A stretch of DNA of 13,902 nucleotides from a virus (Duplodnaviria > Heunggongvirae > Uroviricota > Caudoviricetes). Below are positions 1-8,414 of this stretch, piece by piece. Numbering within the stretch: the first letter of the stretch is position 1; every line of letters starts with the position of its first letter. The position numbers were made by a program, and so were the translations under genes. The DNA is taken from positions 1 to 13,902 of IMG/VR virus record IMGVR_UViG_2718218136_000009. One strand, given 5' to 3'. Under the pieces are notes generated by a model. The model made no database searches. It saw only the letters and a program-made list of their open reading frames with translations, and had not been told where the DNA came from.

Positions 1-1230
1 ATGAGCAGAGCACTTAACAAACTGAGCGATACACAGCTAAGAAAAATCAACGGCACACCAGCCCCAAAAACCACATTTCTTAATGACGGTGGAAACCTGA
101 GTATCAGACACTCCACCAGCGGCCTGTTAACCTGGTATTTCACCTACAGGGCAGGAACAGGACGCCAGGTATCACCGGAACGCCTGAAACTGGGAAATTA
201 TCCTGATCTGAGCCTGAAAGCAGCCAGGGAAAAAGCAGCACAGTGTCGCGCATGGCTGGCAGAGGGAAAAAATCCACGCCATGAGCTTAATTACTCCATA
301 CAGGAAGCACTAAAGCCGGTAACGGTGGGCGATGCGATCAGCTACTGGCTGGAAATGCACGTAAAGGAAAACCGTGTCGATTACGTCTCCCTGAAAAGCC
401 GCCTGAATAATCACGTCATACAGCATATTGGCAATATGCCACTGGATAAATGCGAGTTACGTCACTGGCTGGCCTGTTTTGACCGGATACGCAAAAAATC
501 ACCCGTAACATCTGGCCACATGATGCAGGCGTGCAAACAGGCGCTTAAGTTCTGCCGTAAACGTCGCTACGCAGTCAGTAACGTTCTGGATGATCTCAAC
601 GTGGTGGACGTTGGCAAAAAGCCGGGCATAAGCGAACGCGTGCTTAGTAACAAAGAACTGGGCGAATTATTACAGGCACTGGATAAAAAAATATTCCCAC
701 CCTACTACAGCGCACTAATCCGCCTCCTGATTGTGTTTGGCTGCCGAACCGGAGAACTGAGGCTGTCGGAGATCAGGGAGTGGGATTTTAAGGAAATGCT
801 CTGGACGGTACCGAAAGAACACAGCAAAACGAAGGTCGCCATATTCAGGCCAATACCGGAAAGCATTTTACCGTTCGTCACGCTGCTGGTGGAGCAGAAC
901 AAACACACAGGGCTATTACTCGGGGAACAGAAACAGGAAGCCAGCGTGTCGCAATACGGCAGATTCATGCACAAAAAATTAAACCATTCGCACTGGTCAC
1001 TACACGATATACGGCGCACGTTTACCACGATGCTGAACGATTTAGGCGTGGATCCGCATATTGTCGAACAACTCACCGCTCACCAGATGCCAGGGATGCA
1101 GCGAGTCTATAACCACTCCCGTTATCTCGATGCGAAACGTAACGCGCTGGATATGTGGACAGAGCGATTAGAGATACTGGCAGGTGCTCACGAAAACGTA
1201 ACCACACTGCCAATAGCCAGAGAAATATAA
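1..1230 (+). CDS. int: Tyrosine-type site-specific integrase (P4-like phage integrase family)
   Basis: 409-aa ORF starting at ATG. N-terminal arm-binding-like region (LSIRHSTSGLLTWYFTYR). Catalytic-domain motifs GCRTGEL (box I Arg), HDIRRTF (box II His-x-x-Arg) and a C-terminal Tyr region (VYNHSRY). Size typical of P4-type integrases. Confidence 0.9.
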   Translation: MSRALNKLSDTQLRKINGTPAPKTTFLNDGGNLSIRHSTSGLLTWYFTYRAGTGRQVSPERLKLGNYPDLSLKAAREKAAQCRAWLAEGKNPRHELNYSIQEALKPVTVGDAISYWLEMHVKENRVDYVSLKSRLNNHVIQHIGNMPLDKCELRHWLACFDRIRKKSPVTSGHMMQACKQALKFCRKRRYAVSNVLDDLNVVDVGKKPGISERVLSNKELGELLQALDKKIFPPYYSALIRLLIVFGCRTGELRLSEIREWDFKEMLWTVPKEHSKTKVAIFRPIPESILPFVTLLVEQNKHTGLLLGEQKQEASVSQYGRFMHKKLNHSHWSLHDIRRTFTTMLNDLGVDPHIVEQLTAHQMPGMQRVYNHSRYLDAKRNALDMWTERLEILAGAHENVTTLPIAREI

Positions 1231-1313: not shown

Positions 1314-1597
1314 TTGATTATCATCTGACTGACACCCTAAAAAGTTGATTTTCAGTCGTTTTACTGGCTTTTTGTACATTGGCGAATCACTCTTAAAAAC
1401 ATGTAAAAAAGGCGTAAAAACAGAATTTTATGCCTTTGCACCACAATGAATTAAAAGAGTTTTTATTCTCATTACCCCACTTCTGTAAAATGACCGCCGC
1501 CAGTGTTTGCCATTCCATAAACACCCTGACACAATCCGACGCACCACAACACAATAGGACACCAAATAACTCTTTAAGAAATATCAAAGGGGGAATT

Positions 1598-1786
1598 GTG
1601 TTAAGCACAGATCGCTTTATACGTGAAAAAGAATGTCAGCAACTTACAGGCCTGAGCCGCTCATGTCGGTACCGCCTGGAAAAAGCCGGACAATTCCCAT
1701 CACGGCGTAAGCTCGGCGGTCGTTCTGTTGGCTGGTCTTTATCCGAAGTTCTGGCATGGAAGGACAGCTGCGAGGCAGTTCACTAA
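1598..1786 (+). CDS. alpA: AlpA-family (excisionase-like, MerR-superfamily HTH) transcriptional regulator
   Basis: Sequence DRFIREKECQQLTGLSRSCRYRLEKAGQFPSRRKLGGRSVGWSLSEVLAWK matches the AlpA/prophage regulatory protein pattern (HTH followed by SVGW...E...W). Start chosen at in-frame GTG 1598 after SD AAAGGGGG (1586-1593), giving 62 aa. The upstream ATG at 1430 would add a low-complexity 56-aa extension with no SD. Confidence 0.8.
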   Translation: MLSTDRFIREKECQQLTGLSRSCRYRLEKAGQFPSRRKLGGRSVGWSLSEVLAWKDSCEAVH

Positions 1787-2204
1787 TCAGGCTGGCGGCA
1801 CACAGCCGCCACCCATCCACTAATACAGAGATCTAACCATGAATACTGGATATACGCCTGTACAGGGGCGGGGCTTCGTTCGGCCTGAAAACCAGAATCT
1901 GCAAAATTTCGCCGAAATTATTCCGGTTATTTCCGGCCTTATTGGCGGGAGTGAAACCAATATTGTTAACGCCAGAGCGTTGCAGATGTTTGATGATGAA
2001 AAGGGAGTAAATTTAACTTACACCCCTGACGGCAATCAGAATATGAGCATTATCTCTGAGTCAGTTTTCTACAAACTAATAAAAACAAAAAGCGCCCCGT
2101 TGCCGGAGCGCCCTTGCGAACAATTAACCTGCTGCGAAAAAAATGGATCAGTGCAGGGGAATTATATCAACCGTGTGGCGAAGCGCCACAATTGCCGGAT
2201 AACA

Positions 2205-2235
2205 GGTAAAACAAAGGCCACCCGCGACGGTGGCC
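2205..2235 (-). terminator. Rho-independent terminator for the minus-strand RHH gene
   Basis: Read on the minus strand: 7-bp GC stem GGCCACC / GGTGGCC (2216-2222 and 2229-2235) with a 6-nt loop, followed by UUUGUUUU (complement of 2208-2215). A second hairpin TGTGGCG-aag-CGCCACA lies at 2174-2190. Confidence 0.5.
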
Positions 2236-2338
2236 CCTCGACACAAGCTACACGTTATCCCCAACGCATGAGCATAGCCAACAATGCCACATTTGCGGCT
2301 GGTGGGCAATGTGATCAGTGTGCTGGCTTGCTGGTGGG

Positions 2339-2518
2339 CTATTCCTGCTCTTTGGCCTTGCGGCGCTGGCGGCGTTTGATCTCGCCACGCATGGCTGCGC
2401 TTATAAACTGCCCTGTACTTTCGCCTTCTTCTTTCACTTTTTCCATGCCTTCAATAATTTCATGGGCAATACGTGCAGTTACAGATTGTGATTTTGCATT
2501 CTTTGGACCTGTTGCCAT
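2339..2518 (-). CDS. Ribbon-helix-helix (CopG/Arc/ParD-like) DNA-binding protein, candidate repressor of the element
   Basis: 59 aa (MATGPKNAKSQSVTARIAHEIIEGMEKVKEEGESTGQFISAAMRGEIKRRQRRKAKEQE). Beta-strand-like SVTARI followed by two short helices, as in ParD/Arc, then a basic tail. Strong SD AAGGAG six nt upstream of the ATG on the minus strand (complement of 2525-2530). Only credible minus-strand gene in the window, divergent from the early operon. Confidence 0.7.
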   Translation of the reverse strand: MATGPKNAKSQSVTARIAHEIIEGMEKVKEEGESTGQFISAAMRGEIKRRQRRKAKEQE

Positions 2519-2539
2519 GTCTAACTCCTTATGTTTTTG

Positions 2540-2620
2540 GTGTAAGACAATATACACGAAAAAAAATTATTTTGAAGGATTGACGTGTAAGACACTACTG
2601 CTTTACATTGTGTCTTACAC
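2540..2620. promoter_or_regulatory. Divergent promoter region with three operator-like 11-bp sites (GTGTAAGACAC)
   Basis: GTGTAAGACAa at 2540-2550, GTGTAAGACAC at 2585-2595 and its exact reverse complement GTGTCTTACAC at 2610-2620 (11-bp inverted repeat, 14-bp spacer). Rightward -35 TTGACG (2580-2585) and -10 TACATT (2604-2609) overlap sites 2 and 3. A leftward -10 TATATT (complement of 2550-2555) lies next to site 1. Confidence 0.6.
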
Positions 2621-2717
2621 CTTGTTTATGCAAGGTGCAGAAACGACGAAACCCCGCACTGTTGGAGCAGTAACGGGGCTTCTAACCACCAACGATAGCA
2701 GAAGTATCGAGGTAGCT

Positions 2718-2924
2718 ATGTTAAATCATACCACACACCCGCAAGGGCGGGACTCGCACAACCTGAATAAATACATCTGGCGTTTTATCGCCCTGAGCAC
2801 CGCACAACCGCGCGTGATTCACATCGAGGCCACCAGCGAACAGGAAGCACGCCAGCAATCCCCGGCTGGTTGCGTGATGGTATTCGCCGCCCGTATTCGT
2901 CAGGGGGTACGCCATGTGCAATAA
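2718..2924 (+). CDS. Small early protein, tentatively Icd-like (host cell division inhibitor-like); first gene of the early operon
   Basis: 68 aa (MLNHTTHPQGRDSHNLNKYIWRFIALSTAQ...TSEQEARQQ...). SD GAGG five nt upstream of ATG 2718. The family assignment is from memory of Icd-like proteins in P4-type islands and is not verified. Confidence 0.5.
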   Translation: MLNHTTHPQGRDSHNLNKYIWRFIALSTAQPRVIHIEATSEQEARQQSPAGCVMVFAARIRQGVRHVQ

Positions 2925-3584: not shown

Positions 3585-3884
3585 ATGAAACAGAAAAATT
3601 CTGGCTTTACTGCCAGCGGCTCCGCTCGGCCTGAAATCCGCCCCGGCGATATTTTCCGGGATAACTACGGCGGCACGGTAACGATTAAAAGCGTGGCGGG
3701 ACGGTGTGTTACTTACCGCCGTGAAGGTTATGACTATGACTGCGTGATGCCTGTTTATCAGTTCCGCCGTGATTTTTCTCTGGTACAGGCAGCGCAACGC
3801 AGTAAGCCCACCAGCAGGGAAAAAGCACGGGAAAATATTAAGAAAATAAAAAGCATGCTCAGCGCATCCAGAGGTAAAAAATGA
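3585..3884 (+). CDS. Hypothetical protein (99 aa)
   Basis: SD GAGGAA (3571-3576) eight nt upstream of the ATG. Stop overlaps the Rep start (ATGA). Confidence 0.55.
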   Translation: MKQKNSGFTASGSARPEIRPGDIFRDNYGGTVTIKSVAGRCVTYRREGYDYDCVMPVYQFRRDFSLVQAAQRSKPTSREKARENIKKIKSMLSASRGKK

Positions 3885-5287
3885 AACTGGCACCGAACGT
3901 AAAACTGTTACCGAAAGATAAACACACTGAGGCGGTTATTTTTGCGGGTGATAATGCTCACTCCTTTGCAGAACATTACATGATTGCACAGGCCAAAAAA
4001 GCAGGCGATCCCATCCCTCCGGTTTACCTGGGCCGTTATCAGTTAAGCGAACTGGACAATTTACAGATTGTTGATGAAGGACGATACAGAGCAAAGGTCA
4101 TACGCGCCGGAAACCTGGACGATATGCAGATGCTGACCATTGCCACAAAACTGGCGATCGCAGGTGTCCGGGAAGCGCGGTTACTTTCAGAGAATTTCGA
4201 ACTACTGGAGGACTGGGGCGAGCAACTACCGCGCCTTAAAGAAACCTGGGAACGTGGGGAAAGCCTGGTCATGAATGGCGGAAAGCGAAAAATCACACTT
4301 CCCATCTCATGGGGTTCTGAGGGATTCGACGCGCAGCAAAGCTACGTAATTAAGGGGCTTATTCCGGCTGAATCATTATGCAGCACCTACGGGGCCAGCG
4401 GCTCTTATAAATCGTTCCTGGCTATTTCCTGGTCGTGCCATGTTGCCACAGGTATGGCATGGGGAGGCCGCAGGGTCAGTAAGGGCGCGGTTATCTATAT
4501 CGCTGGTGAAGGCAGCATGGGCGTAAAACGCCGCGTTAAGGCGTGGGAGATAACCCACGACAAGGTGGTTACAGATTTGTGCATCATTAACGCGCCTGTC
4601 TTCCCTGCATCGCCTGACTATGTGGAGCAGGTTATCAGAACTGCCGGACTTGTTAAGAGCAGAACGGGCGAAAATGTGCGGCTGATTGTGATAGACACGC
4701 TGGCCCGTTGCTTTGGTGGGAATGATGAAAATGATTCCCGTGATATGGGCGCATTTATCCAGGGGTGTGACGCGATAAAGCAGGCCACAGGGGCCACGGT
4801 GCTGGTGGTTCACCATTCCGGCAAGGATGAAACAAAGGGGGCGCGTGGTTCCAGCGCATTCCGTGCCGCACTGGATGCAGAGTACCGAATCAGCCGGGAA
4901 AATTCAGACGTTACAGCACTGGTGGCGGCGTGTACGAAGATGAAGGACGCAGAGGAGCCAAAAGAAAGCGCATACGACCTTAAAAGCGTGGAGGTGTTTA
5001 CCGATACAGATGGCGAAGAGATTGTGTCCATGGTGGTGATTGACGTTCCCCGCGCCCCTGCTGAACTGGAACGCATCGAGGAGGCCGGGAACAAGACGGA
5101 AAATCACACGGCTTTATGGGGTTGTATCCGATCACGTATACAGCATGGTGATAAATGCACGATCCCGTTGCTACGTGACGACATGAAAAAGCTGGGATAT
5201 GACACAAAACACCTTAAACGATGGTTAGCAAAACTGGAAAAAGACGGCGTGATTTGCGTCGATGGGGATGATGTTCACCCACTGTAA
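3881..5287 (+). CDS. RecA-like/AAA_25-type P-loop ATPase with C-terminal winged-helix region; candidate replication initiator or helicase (Rep)
   Basis: 468 aa. Walker A GASGSYKSF, Walker B LIVIDTLARC, and VLVVHHSGKD as in RepA/DnaB-C-like ATPases. SD GAGG six nt upstream. An iteron array follows the stop directly. Confidence 0.8.
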   Translation: MKLAPNVKLLPKDKHTEAVIFAGDNAHSFAEHYMIAQAKKAGDPIPPVYLGRYQLSELDNLQIVDEGRYRAKVIRAGNLDDMQMLTIATKLAIAGVREARLLSENFELLEDWGEQLPRLKETWERGESLVMNGGKRKITLPISWGSEGFDAQQSYVIKGLIPAESLCSTYGASGSYKSFLAISWSCHVATGMAWGGRRVSKGAVIYIAGEGSMGVKRRVKAWEITHDKVVTDLCIINAPVFPASPDYVEQVIRTAGLVKSRTGENVRLIVIDTLARCFGGNDENDSRDMGAFIQGCDAIKQATGATVLVVHHSGKDETKGARGSSAFRAALDAEYRISRENSDVTALVAACTKMKDAEEPKESAYDLKSVEVFTDTDGEEIVSMVVIDVPRAPAELERIEEAGNKTENHTALWGCIRSRIQHGDKCTIPLLRDDMKKLGYDTKHLKRWLAKLEKDGVICVDGDDVHPL

Positions 5288-5488
5288 AAAGTGGGCGTTA
5301 AAAGTGGGAATAGTGGGTAATTTAACCGAAATTTAACAAAATCGCCCACTTTCCCACGTGTATACATCCAAAAAAGTGGGCACTAAAAAAATACTTATGA
5401 AACAGTACGATATAAAACCACAAAATCCCAGGTGGGACGAAGTGGGAAACCATGAAAAGTGGGCAGAAAAAGTGGGCACAGGTGGGCG
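5286..5488. repeat. Iteron array (about 11 copies of A/G-GTGGG, consensus AAAGTGGGCA) with central AT-rich segment; candidate replication origin
   Basis: AGTGGG cores at 5290, 5303, 5312, 5375, 5441, 5458, 5471; GGTGGG at 5431 and 5481; inverted copies CCCACT at 5345-5350 and CCCAC at 5353-5357. AT-rich stretch 5384-5427 between the iteron groups. Position is immediately 3' of the Rep gene. Confidence 0.7.
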
Positions 5489-5489
5489 C

Positions 5490-5741
5490 ATGACAAGAAA
5501 AACCAGAGATAAGACAGCACCAAAATATAAAGCGTTAGACATGACAGAGCACGCCTTAAAGGTGGCAATCAGAACGATAGACCGCCACGCCGGGGAAGGA
5601 TACGCGAAAGCACATCCCGAACTGATAAGCGCATTCATGACCACGACGGCGGCAAACTTTGCCACGCTGACAGAACGGGAGATTGCCGAAGCGGAACAGG
5701 TGACAACCATCAACGTTAAAACCGGAGAGCATACAGCATGA
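5490..5741 (+). CDS. Hypothetical protein (83 aa from ATG 5490)
   Basis: The reading frame opens at GTG 5358 inside the iterons. ATG 5490 follows the last iteron and AGGTGGG. ATG 5398 and 5541 are alternatives. Stop overlaps the SSB start. Confidence 0.4.
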   Translation: MTRKTRDKTAPKYKALDMTEHALKVAIRTIDRHAGEGYAKAHPELISAFMTTTAANFATLTEREIAEAEQVTTINVKTGEHTA

Positions 5742-6163
5742 CAGCACAGATAGCGGCTTACGGGCGGCTGGTGGCTGACCCGCAGTTAAAGACCACCAGC
5801 AAAGGGACACAAATGGCGATGGCGAGTATGGCGGTTCCCCTGCCGTGCAGCCAGGCCGATGACGGAACGGCGACGATGTGGTTATCCGTCCTGGCGTTTG
5901 GCAGACAGGCCGACGCACTGGCAAAGCACCACAAAGGCGAACTCGTGAGCGTGGCGGGTAACATGCAGGTAAGCCAGTGGACAGGCCAGAACGGCGAAAC
6001 GCGGCAGGGCTGGCAGGTTATCGCAGACAGTGTAATCAGTGCCAGAACGGCGCGACCGGGCGGCAAAAAAGGCCAGCAGGGCCAGGCCACTGACGCACTG
6101 AACAGGGCAAAACAACAGACAGGCCAGCACGATGACCCGTACGGGGACGGGATACCGTTTTAA
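5738..6163 (+). CDS. ssb: Single-stranded DNA-binding protein (SSB-like)
   Basis: 141 aa. OB-fold-like core (AAYGRLVADPQLK..., WLSVLAFGRQADALAKHHKGELVSVAGNMQVSQWTGQNGETRQ) and acidic C-terminal tail ending DGIPF, as in the bacterial SSB D-D-D-I-P-F tip. SD GGAGAG upstream. Confidence 0.8.
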   Translation: MTAQIAAYGRLVADPQLKTTSKGTQMAMASMAVPLPCSQADDGTATMWLSVLAFGRQADALAKHHKGELVSVAGNMQVSQWTGQNGETRQGWQVIADSVISARTARPGGKKGQQGQATDALNRAKQQTGQHDDPYGDGIPF

Positions 6164-6199: not shown

Positions 6200-6730
6200 A
6201 TGACAAAGATGACCATTAACCGAAAACCGAAAGGCATTTACGGCACGCCGCAGAAAATACCGCAGGCGGCACAGCAGCAGGATAAAACCACATCGGCGCA
6301 TAAAGTGATACCCGGCAATCAGAACGCACAGCAGAAACCCACAGGGGCGACAGCGTGGCGGCATATGACCAAACGCCAGCGCAAAAACCGCAGACGCGTT
6401 AACCGCCTTATTGAATTGTGGCCAGAATTATTCAGCCGGGAAGCACCGAAGCCGCTTAAGGTGGGGATATTCGACGACCTGATGCAGGATATCGCCGCCA
6501 GGGGGCTGACATTCGGGCCGGGGGCATTACGTGCGACGCTGGCATCCTATGCGCAGTCTCCGCGCTATTACCGCGCCTTAATAGCTGGTGGGGTACGCTA
6601 CGACCTGAAAGGCCAGCCATGTGGGGAAGTGACACCACAGGAACAGCAGGAGGCAGAAACGCGGCTGATGGCGCTGAATGAGAAGCACAAGCGCCAGCGC
6701 CGGGCAGCAAAGGGGGATACATGCCAGTGA
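6200..6730 (+). CDS. ProQ/FinO-family RNA-binding protein (FinO domain)
   Basis: 176 aa. Segment LFSREAPKPLKVGIFDDLMQDIAARGL...LRATLASYAQSPRYYRALIAGGVRYDLKGQPCGEVT aligns by eye with the E. coli ProQ N-terminal domain ([23 protein letters not shown]...LRSALRLYTSSWRYLYGV...RVDLDGNPCGEL). Basic, disordered N-terminal extension. ATG 6209 is an alternative start. Confidence 0.8.
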   Translation: MTKMTINRKPKGIYGTPQKIPQAAQQQDKTTSAHKVIPGNQNAQQKPTGATAWRHMTKRQRKNRRRVNRLIELWPELFSREAPKPLKVGIFDDLMQDIAARGLTFGPGALRATLASYAQSPRYYRALIAGGVRYDLKGQPCGEVTPQEQQEAETRLMALNEKHKRQRRAAKGDTCQ

Positions 6731-7244: not shown

Positions 7245-8414
7245 ATGAAGAAATTAATCGAACTCCGCCAGCAAAAAACCGCCCTGAAAAACCAGATGCG
7301 ATCCCTGCTGGAAAAAGCCGACAGTGAAAACCGCAGCCTGAACGATGACGAGGGCAAACAGTTTGATGAACTGCGTGCAAAAGCCGATTCCCTCGACACA
7401 GAAATTTCCCGCCTCGAGTCTGTGGCTGATGAAGAACGCAGCAAGCCAGGAACGGGCATCCAGAAATTATCATCTGATGAATTGCGTAACTATATCGTAA
7501 CCGGAGATGTGCGATCACTGTCCACCAGCACTGACAGCGGCAGGGATGGCGGATATACCGTAATTCCTGAGCTTGATCGCGAAGTCATGCGCCAGCTACA
7601 GGATGACAGTGTTATGCGCGTGATCGCGACCGTGAAGACCGCAAAATCAAATGAGTTTCAGAAACTGGTTTCCACTGGCGGCGCAACTGTAGGAAGAGGC
7701 ACAGAAGGCAGCGCGCGCAGCGAAACCAACACCCCGAAAATTGAACGCGTAACCATCAAGCTGAATCCGATCTACGCCTACCCGAAAACCACGCAGGAAA
7801 TCCTGGATTTTTCAGAGGTGGATATTCTGGGCTGGTTATCCTCCGAAATTGCCGACACGTTCGCCAGCACCGAAGAGGATGATTTTGTTAATGGCGACGG
7901 TAACGGCAAGCCGAAAGGATTCATGGCTTACACCCGTGCGGCGACCAGTGACAAAACCCGCGCTTTTGGCACCATTGAAAAAATGGTAGCGGCAAGTGGA
8001 ACCGCCATTACAGCGGACGAACTGATCGACATTCTCTACAAGCTGAAAGCGAAATACCGCAAAAATGCCGTCTGGGTGATGAACTCGGGCACGGCAGGGA
8101 CACTACAGAAGCTGAAAAATGAGAACGGCGATTATATCTGGCGCGACAGCCTTAAAGAAGGTGCGCCGGATATGTTGCTTGGTCGTCCTGTTTACTGCCT
8201 GGAGTCCATGCCGGACATCGGCGCAGGAAAAGCACCGCTAGCGGTTGGCGATTTCAGTCGTGGTTATTTCATCGTTGATCATGTAACAGGGATTCGCACC
8301 CGACCGGACAACATTACTGAACCCGGATTCTACAAGGTCCACACGGATAAATATCTGGGCGGTGGTGTGGTGGATTCAAACGCCATCAAAATTCTGGAAA
8401 TGAAAGCTGGCTAG
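7245..8414 (+). CDS. Phage major capsid protein, HK97 family
   Basis: 389 aa. N-terminal coiled-coil delta-domain-like region (MKKLIELRQQKTALKNQMRSLLEKADSE...LRAKADSLDTEISRLE) followed by a capsid-fold-sized body. Immediately upstream of the prohead protease and portal genes. Confidence 0.85.
   Translation: MKKLIELRQQKTALKNQMRSLLEKADSENRSLNDDEGKQFDELRAKADSLDTEISRLESVADEERSKPGTGIQKLSSDELRNYIVTGDVRSLSTSTDSGRDGGYTVIPELDREVMRQLQDDSVMRVIATVKTAKSNEFQKLVSTGGATVGRGTEGSARSETNTPKIERVTIKLNPIYAYPKTTQEILDFSEVDILGWLSSEIADTFASTEEDDFVNGDGNGKPKGFMAYTRAATSDKTRAFGTIEKMVAASGTAITADELIDILYKLKAKYRKNAVWVMNSGTAGTLQKLKNENGDYIWRDSLKEGAPDMLLGRPVYCLESMPDIGAGKAPLAVGDFSRGYFIVDHVTGIRTRPDNITEPGFYKVHTDKYLGGGVVDSNAIKILEMKAG

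Follow-up and report, generated by a model that had tools for sequence, protein, structure and literature searches.

The closest described counterpart of the locus analyzed here is the replication origin of EcCICFT073, a phage-inducible chromosomal island (PICI) of Escherichia coli. Our locus, a candidate origin made of short iterons, lies directly downstream of the replication gene rep in a 13,902-nt stretch of viral DNA (IMG/VR record IMGVR_UViG_2718218136_000009; hereafter the window, whose numbering is used for all coordinates), which by its gene content is an E. coli capsid-forming PICI (cf-PICI). With the cloned rep-ori segment of EcCICFT073, a thermosensitive plasmid could be kept at the restrictive temperature (Fillol-Salom et al., 2018, PMC6092414). 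In the same tests, a rep mutant gave no colonies, and deletion of ori made plasmid maintenance significantly poorer than with the intact construct (PMC6092414). EcCICFT073 and the window's element agree in host species, kind of element, and gene order (DUF4222 gene, rep, iteron field, small gene, ssb), and in both the origin, a candidate one in the window, lies directly 3′ of rep, with two iteron sets flanking an AT-rich stretch. The first 130 residues of the two Rep proteins are homologous (45% identity) and are the only part of Rep that is shared. The differences concern what lies between and beyond: EcCICFT073 has a 289-bp field of unrelated iterons (GGTAGAYA/CTGTCTACC vs. AAGTGGG in the window), its Rep core is of the SF3 type (D5_N, DUF5906, Pox_D5) and not RecA-type AAA_25, and the window's element adds a full capsid and packaging module. 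Since the flanking N-terminal domain and the downstream gene are conserved between the two elements, the helicase core, C-terminal domain, and iteron field appear to form one exchangeable cassette.

In the pathogenicity islands of Staphylococcus aureus (SaPIs), the origins comprise 6–12 iterons immediately after rep, with an AT-rich center; Rep reads these penta- or hexanucleotide iterons with a C-terminal winged helix and is a self-loading helicase (Qiao et al., 2022, PMC9371898). The order of N-terminal domain, ATPase, and C-terminal winged helix is the same in the window's Rep as predicted, and the two systems are also alike in short iterons downstream of rep, their opposite directions, the AT-rich center, and, as predicted for the window, cognate Rep-ori specificity. 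However, SaPIs belong to a Gram-positive host and have no detectable sequence relationship to the window, and their Reps are SF3/AAA+ helicases of 3′–5′ polarity, whereas the window's core resembles RepA of RSF1010, a 5′–3′ helicase. In RSF1010 (IncQ), the helicase core is homologous to that of the window, and direct iterons likewise adjoin an AT-rich stretch, but the iterons, 20-bp units, are bound by a separate protein, RepC, whereas the window's Rep fuses a predicted winged helix to the helicase and the repeats have a 5-bp core. No plasmid replication-protein family was found in the ten open reading frames (ORFs) scanned against Pfam, without a dedicated RepC/RepB search. For the remaining ORFs, the annotation of a closely related island of E. 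coli PEC148 served as the basis; it lists neither RepC nor RepB′, again without a dedicated search.

The initiator of P4, like the window's Rep as predicted, is that of a satellite and combines a helicase with a C-terminal winged helix. The alpha protein of this enterobacterial phage satellite binds short repeats through the winged helix and contains a primase domain besides its SF3 helicase domain; it depends on two separate repeat regions, ori and crr, where the window has a single repeat cluster. P4 has already been compared with PICIs (PMC6092414). Classical iteron plasmids (pPS10, RK2, F, R6K, P1) also place direct repeats, which their own initiator binds, next to an AT-rich unwinding element, for which the window has a candidate. 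They possess 17–22-bp iterons, DnaA boxes, and WH1-WH2 initiators of the Rep_3 family, which recruit DnaB through DnaA and DnaC; by contrast, the putative initiator of the window is a helicase that matches only AAA_25 in Pfam and not Rep_3, DnaA boxes are missing from 5100–5700, and the repeats have a 5-bp core. A sequence-only reading of the window had called the arrangement a classical satellite and plasmid layout. Closest in layout, however, is the PICI/SaPI origin, whose initiator is also the helicase, and not the origin of a classical iteron plasmid. With the field directly 3′ of rep and its iteron sets around an AT-rich tract, the origin very probably belongs to the known PICI/SaPI type.

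The repeat field downstream of rep

Both strands of the window were scanned for repeats. The hexamer RGTGGG occurred 29 times, compared to 13.5 ± 3.5 in dinucleotide-preserving shuffles (n = 200), none of which reached 29, and 11 of the 29 copies fell within positions 5278–5486. The bare core GTGGG was present 12 times in this 210-bp interval, in nine direct (5291, 5304, 5313, 5376, 5432, 5442, 5459, 5472, and 5482) and three inverted copies (5278, 5345, and 5353), while 0.42 copies would be expected from their frequency elsewhere in the window (Poisson P ~4e-14). The densest 210-bp cluster in first-order Markov simulations (n = 300) held 5 copies. A second GTGGG cluster was not found elsewhere in the window. 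The copy at 5278 was rejected as a twelfth iteron: it lies inside the last Rep codons and is still GTGGG in relatives whose iterons are GTGAG, and it is therefore coding sequence. The remaining field (5286–5489, 204 bp) contains 11 cores, nine direct and two inverted, with about 0.4 expected. Its + strand is purine-rich (A 82 and G 50 of 204).

These counts bear out the sequence-only reading, which had given about eleven copies, nine direct and two inverted. It had also placed the beginning of the field on the Rep stop codon, and this is correct: the stop TAA (5285–5287) sits in the A-run of the first unit, AAAAAGTGGGC, which starts at 5286. Its unit, A/G-GTGGG, describes most copies but not one of the inverted iterons, which reads CGTGGG, and the AT-rich segment that it saw splitting the field exists but is 45 bp long (5384–5428), not 44 bp. 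The consensus unit of the window consists of an A-rich lead of ~4 nt, the invariant GTGGG, and then C or A; the spacing of the 5-bp cores within the sets is irregular (8–17 bp).

Along the window, three direct copies are followed by two inverted and one direct copy, the 45-bp AT-rich tract, and five direct copies (Table 1). By nearest-neighbor energies, no 45-mer in the 13.9-kb window is less stable than 5383–5427 (top 0.01%), which practically coincides with this tract. The inverted pair and the direct copy belong to an imperfect 38-bp palindrome, whose center coincides exactly with that of a perfect palindrome, TGTATACA (5359–5366). Neither this palindrome nor the AT-rich spacer preceding it (5318–5343) had been noted in the sequence-only reading.

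The same order was found, whatever the iteron type, in 27 mapped loci from several genera. A first group of two to four direct copies, which begins at the rep stop or slightly ahead of it, is followed by a spacer, an inverted copy, 24–26 nt, a direct copy, a tract of ~45–50 nt that is usually AT-rich, and three to five direct copies reaching the start of the next gene. The first iteron lies at the rep stop also in the seven aligned E. coli relatives. The center of the inverted pair was TGTATAYA, CATATATA, or similar in approximately 68 of 81 loci, comprising all four iteron types described below. The dyad is better conserved than the AT-rich tract, whose A+T content stays below 75% in some loci of Pantoea and Kluyvera.

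Several natural variants of the field were detected. In three IMG/VR loci (L140, L146, and L150; 230 bp after the rep stop), a Rep of the Asn type (see below) is accompanied by GTGAG in the left set and dyad, and two or three distal right copies are GTGGG. Such hybrid fields point to recombination inside the right iteron set and would make the left set and dyad the constrained core of the field. The 16,971-bp circular record CP018459.1 (locus L089, Klebsiella pneumoniae pKp_Goe_795-4), deposited as a non-mobilizable plasmid, is cf-PICI-like, with integrase, capsid, and terminase, and has the same Rep family and origin layout as the window. Its Rep is of the Ser type, the iterons are GTGCGGC, and the same dyad is present with CTGTATACA. 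As a circular record deposited as a plasmid, it offers indirect evidence that a rep-ori segment of this kind may drive autonomous replication. Unexpectedly for a cf-PICI, one of its genes (3.4 kb) carries the annotation of a tail tape measure protein.

A natural deletion of 83 bp, aligned to 5384–5466 of the window, occurs in E. coli O103 ML775 (L007:1635–1788). It removes the AT-rich tract and the first iterons of the right set, and the deletion has its end points in direct 18-nt units AAAAAGTGGGGAG(T/C)AAAA. The Rep of this locus (WP_000833625.1) is identical to that of the undeleted locus L004. In effect, L007 is a ready-made deletion mutant of the putative origin.

Rep residue 444 and the fourth iteron base

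Seven E. coli loci with the same layout were aligned. GTGGG stood at nearly every copy in four of them and GTGAG in three, and the spacers drifted independently of the core. Because the copies change together within loci, the repeats are probably read by a single factor that changes with them. Six E. coli Rep proteins had very few differences in the C-terminal 70 residues, and a single C-terminal position separated the groups, with His444 accompanying GTGGG and Asn accompanying GTGAG.

For a wider sample, 80 loci were taken from species-representative genomes, and k-mers were counted de novo in the 260 bp after the rep stop. The sample spans Xenorhabdus, Pectobacterium, Pantoea, Serratia, Morganella, Kosakonia, Erwinia, Dickeya, and two Oceanospirillales, and in it four repeat types follow the residue aligned with His444. 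The covariation set consisted of 72 loci with at least four copies, including Escherichia and one Oceanospirillaceae genome; nine other loci with this Rep family did not reach four copies for any single GTGNG core; they were left out of the set and are not counter-examples. Across the 72 loci, His went with GTGGG (13 of 13), Lys with GTGGG(GGA) (25 of 25), Asn with GTGAG (26 of 26), and Ser with GTGCG (8 of 8). Column 444 was the sole one of 340 C-terminal Rep alignment columns with a normalized mutual information of 1.0; the next best columns were hypervariable and reached at most 0.92. Within the E. coli group, it was the only meaningful column separating the GTGGG and GTGAG types. On neighbor-joining trees of the helicase core or the masked C-terminal domain, a switch between Asn and non-Asn at 444 occurred 4–5 times, each with a switch of the base. 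A held-out set of 80 IMG/VR virome loci, 61 of them non-identical, gave the same pairing without exception: 36 loci, and one more with a weak field, paired His with G, and 24 paired Asn with A. Adenine contacted by Asn and guanine contacted by His or Lys are standard amino acid-base contacts in protein-DNA recognition. These data suggest that one Rep residue, 444, reads one iteron base, the fourth of the core.

Other candidates for the iteron reader were considered and rejected. The DUF4222 protein is identical (WP_000770163.1) in the GTGAG locus L003 and the GTGGG locus L004. The 83-aa protein encoded downstream and the N-terminal domain of Rep are both common to EcCICFT073, whose iterons are unrelated. 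A host factor is not compatible with cores that differ between elements of one species and track each element's own Rep residue.

The Rep core belongs to AAA_25 (PF13481, E 7.5e-43) and is homologous to RSF1010 RepA (1g8y, E 3.9e-5), i.e., it is RecA-type and RepA-like. The protein matches PHROG 2850 over its full length, and homologous loci annotate it as a "helicase RepA family protein". Residues 385–468 were modeled with AlphaFold2 from an alignment of 26 sequences. From model residue 21 on, the pLDDT was 83–91, and the order of elements was helix, short strand, helix, helix, and beta hairpin. The best Foldseek matches (prob 0.96–1.0, TM ~0.55) were winged-helix DNA binders: DtxR/IdeR, including DNA complexes, LexA, Fur, DnaD-N, the MCM8 winged helix, and histone H1. 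The C-terminal domain is thus likely a winged helix. In the model, His444 is residue 60, directly before the third helix (61–70), which is the N-cap position of a predicted recognition helix.

The N-terminal ~130 residues of Rep (3881–4270) had no Pfam match and head three different helicase cores. Besides AAA_25 in the window, these are D5_N/DUF5906 in EcCICFT073 (L088:4493–4885, 45% identity) and, in a K. pneumoniae record of 16 kb (plasmid hit H70, CP069874.1), that of a DUF927 protein (59% identity over residues 1–132). The domain may dock a partner common to AAA_25, D5_N/DUF5906, and DUF927 replicons.

Proposed origin function and competing explanations

We consider it highly probable that the field at 5286–5489 is the vegetative, Rep-recognized origin of this E. 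coli cf-PICI. In this explanation, the winged helix of Rep would read the fourth iteron base with His444, and Rep would act as a self-loading helicase. The sequence-only reading had already taken the field for a candidate origin, and this view gained support from synteny, the concerted change of iterons, the residue-base covariation, the conserved layout, and the stability minimum. We infer Rep binding to the iterons and origin activity from these comparisons of sequences.

The following course of initiation can be proposed. Rep would be a RepA-like hexameric helicase whose C-terminal winged helix reads the iteron AAAAGTGGGC/A, with His444, at the start of the recognition helix, reading the fourth base of GTGGG. 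After induction of the satellite by a helper phage, Rep hexamers or their precursors would occupy the direct sets on either side as well as the inverted pair around TGTATACA. Melting of the TATA-like center and/or the adjacent 45-bp AT-rich tract would follow, and Rep would encircle the single strands, loading itself without a separate loader. The satellite single-stranded DNA-binding protein (SSB) would stabilize the opened DNA, and the host priming and polymerase machinery would do the rest. In the absence of a primase domain, host DnaG or another factor would have to supply the primers. This course follows the SaPI model (PMC9371898), with a helicase core of another superfamily; all steps from binding on are inferred.

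Some points weigh against this interpretation. We found no published experiment on this element or this type of Rep. The core of Rep is RecA-type (RepA/SF4-like) and not SF3, the type for which self-loading has been shown in SaPIs, and neither Rep nor any other protein identified in the window by Pfam and PHROG has a primase domain, which leaves priming unexplained. The Foldseek E values for the winged helix are weak (0.03–0.15), as expected for a 60-residue domain. Non-cognate distal right copies are present in some loci, and not every copy need be functional. Finally, the C-terminus of Rep adjoins the iterons, and covariation could partly reflect co-inheritance of one DNA segment; pure linkage is nevertheless disfavored, because all copies change in concert and the pairing recurs on different domain backgrounds.

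If the repeats were instead Rep operator sites controlling rep itself or genes further along (the 83-aa gene, ssb, and those after them), the origin would lie elsewhere. The covariation speaks for recognition by Rep and not for origin function; in relatives, the last iteron overlaps a Shine-Dalgarno-like sequence close before the start equivalent to 5490, and in iteron plasmids inverted iteron-like repeats do act as operators. We nevertheless regard this explanation as improbable. A sigma-70-like promoter was not found in 5000–5800, the window has no second GTGGG cluster that could serve as the origin, and eleven sites flanking its least stable 45-mer exceed what an operator needs. Moreover, loss of the ori 3′ of rep significantly impaired plasmid maintenance in EcCICFT073. 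A dual role as operator and origin is possible and compatible with the preferred explanation.

A packaging (pac/cos) or recombination site, read by TerS or another DNA-binding protein, is a much less probable alternative. cf-PICIs package their own DNA specifically, and some pac sites have short repeat arrays; however, the repeat type tracks the Rep residue and not the packaging module. L004 and L007 share the iteron type of the window but have a different packaging module (different TerS and capsid), in L002 the same type occurs next to a protease-capsid fusion, and the field travels with the 3′ part of rep as one cassette with its right edge at 5480–5498. Least credible of all is a functionless field, i.e., a purine-rich repeat made by chance or slippage, or an array of host-factor sites. 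The A/G-rich + strand somewhat raises the chance of GTGGG-like words, but the departure from the local rate (P ~4e-14) and from simulations (at most 5 vs. 12) is far greater. Copy position, orientation, and number are kept across genera while the spacers diverge, and a host factor cannot account for cores that differ within one species and yet follow the Rep residue.

No DnaA box (TTWTNCACA) was found in 5100–5700, and neither integration host factor (IHF) sites nor a GATC cluster were found in the iteron field. A single minus-strand terminator-like hairpin was within shuffle expectation. The only structured RNA candidate in 5000–5800 (Rfam, E up to 1) was a sub-threshold Antizyme_FSE (18 bits vs. 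a gathering threshold of 40, E 0.51), which we took as chance. A P4-type origin was likewise rejected: the single exact copy of the P4 type I iteron octamer TGTTCACC in the window (5272–5279) lies inside rep, is at chance level (~0.4 expected), and is absent from relatives.

The analysis locates the candidate origin of a satellite replicon that is very common in E. coli; relatives of the region 3′ of rep were present in 983 of 5,426 complete E. coli genomes. The 204-bp fragment with its cognate Rep offers an experimental handle, and the data suggest that a RepA-like helicase may serve as its own initiator. The results leave the general view of how PICIs replicate unchanged. What may be new is the rule linking a single residue to a single base, the dyad with its TATATA-like center, and the initiator-helicase core of RepA-like and not SF3 type. 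The supplements of PMC6092414 contain no iteron sequences of E. coli PICIs, while Figure 2a of that paper, which draws the iterons of several E. coli PICIs, may already display the exact iteron of the window. By the residue-base rule, exchanging His444 and Asn should swap origin preference: among AAAAGTGGGCA, AAAAGTGAGGA, and AAGTGCGGCA units, His444Asn is predicted to prefer GTGAG and His444Ser to prefer GTGCG. The rule could also explain how co-resident satellites replicate separately.

More tentatively, and with rather more doubt than belief, we propose that a RecA-type (RepA/SF4-like) Rep loads itself through the fused winged helix, that residue 444 sets the iteron and thereby creates orthogonal replicons, and that the dyad is a site for two hexamers. 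Such a Rep would be the SF4-like equivalent of self-loading SF3 initiators, as known from SaPIs, SV40, and papillomaviruses. His, Lys, Asn, or Ser at 444 would set the reading of GTGGG, GTGAG, or GTGCG, and one amino-acid change with a concerted change of the iterons would yield mutually orthogonal replicons, so that several satellites could share a cell without cross-talk. The inverted pair with its TATATA-like center would be the site of head-to-head assembly of two hexamers.

The element and its neighboring genes

The assignment to cf-PICIs follows published descriptions (bioRxiv 10.1101/2025.02.11.637232 and 10.1101/2022.09.08.507074). Pfam detected the integrase, AlpA, AAA_25, SSB, and Phage_capsid families in the window, and the packaging genes were found in the PEC148 island, which is inserted in yifB and matches the window with 95% identity over 92% of its length. 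The downstream genes of that island encode prohead protease, portal, head closure, connector, HNH, TerS, and TerL proteins, and its annotation contains no tail or lysis genes. All long ORFs of the window are on the + strand. The features are listed in Table 1.

Table 1. Features of the rep and candidate origin region and of other genes in the window.
Feature	Position	Strand	Evidence and remarks
Integrase	1–1230	+	Pfam
AlpA	1430–1786	+	Pfam
DUF4222 protein	3585–3884	+	Pfam scan
Rep, 468 aa	3881–5287	+	N-terminal domain, residues 1–130; helicase core, 146–386; winged helix, ~407–468
Predicted C-terminal winged helix of Rep, putative iteron reader	5099–5284	+	AlphaFold2, Foldseek
His444 codon (CAC), candidate specificity determinant for iteron base 4	5210–5212	+	Residue-base covariation
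Left iteron set	5286–5317	+	Three direct copies, cores at 5291, 5304, 5313; position kept in all relatives
AT-rich spacer 1	5318–5343		26 bp, 81% A+T; AATTTAAC twice, 11 bp apart
Imperfect palindrome	5344–5381		38 bp; inverted iterons 5345 and 5353, direct iteron 5376
AT-rich tract, candidate DNA unwinding element	5384–5428		45 bp, 76% A+T
Right iteron set	5429–5489	+	Five direct copies, cores at 5432, 5442, 5459, 5472, 5482
83-aa gene, PHROG 1231	5490–5741	+	PHROG 1231, E 6.8e-50, positions 1–82 of 83
SSB, likely replication accessory	5738–6163	+	Pfam SSB, E 4e-16; same position in relatives and EcCICFT073
ProQ/FinO-domain protein	6200–6730	+	Pfam, E 4e-25; RNA chaperone family
HK97-type capsid	7245–8414	+	Pfam Phage_capsid

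On sequence comparison, the rep-ori cassette has its right edge at the 83-aa gene, which is conserved whatever the type of Rep or iteron. Elements with other Rep types become homologous again from 5480–5498, the end of the iteron field, and the product is 82% identical to its EcCICFT073 counterpart, although the iterons of that element are unrelated. The sequence-only reading had noticed that the first in-frame start codons of this ORF, GTG at 5358 and ATG at 5398, fall inside the iterons and had placed the true start probably at 5490 or later. The start at 5490 was corroborated by the NCBI annotation of homologous loci, which begin at the equivalent position, and by PHROG 1231, which is matched from residue 1; both upstream codons were therefore rejected. 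AGGTGGG, the last iteron, is at the same time a Shine-Dalgarno-like sequence for the ATG at 5490 (5479–5492). It is close upstream of the annotated start in every aligned relative and directly against the start in L004–L007. With the last iteron in this position, Rep binding could also affect expression of the gene.

The ProQ/FinO gene follows ssb in the window, where relatives and EcCICFT073 have a PerC-family regulator. At 1839–2924 (+), a 361-aa ORF has no Pfam match. Over the C-terminal 90 residues it is similar to phage repressor families (PHROG 6196, E 6.5e-54), and a short stretch near the N-terminus weakly resembles the anti-repressor Ant. At the equivalent place, the annotation of the closest relative, PEC148, lists no gene of the 361-aa size but gives a YlcI/YnfO gene and a short HTH regulator.

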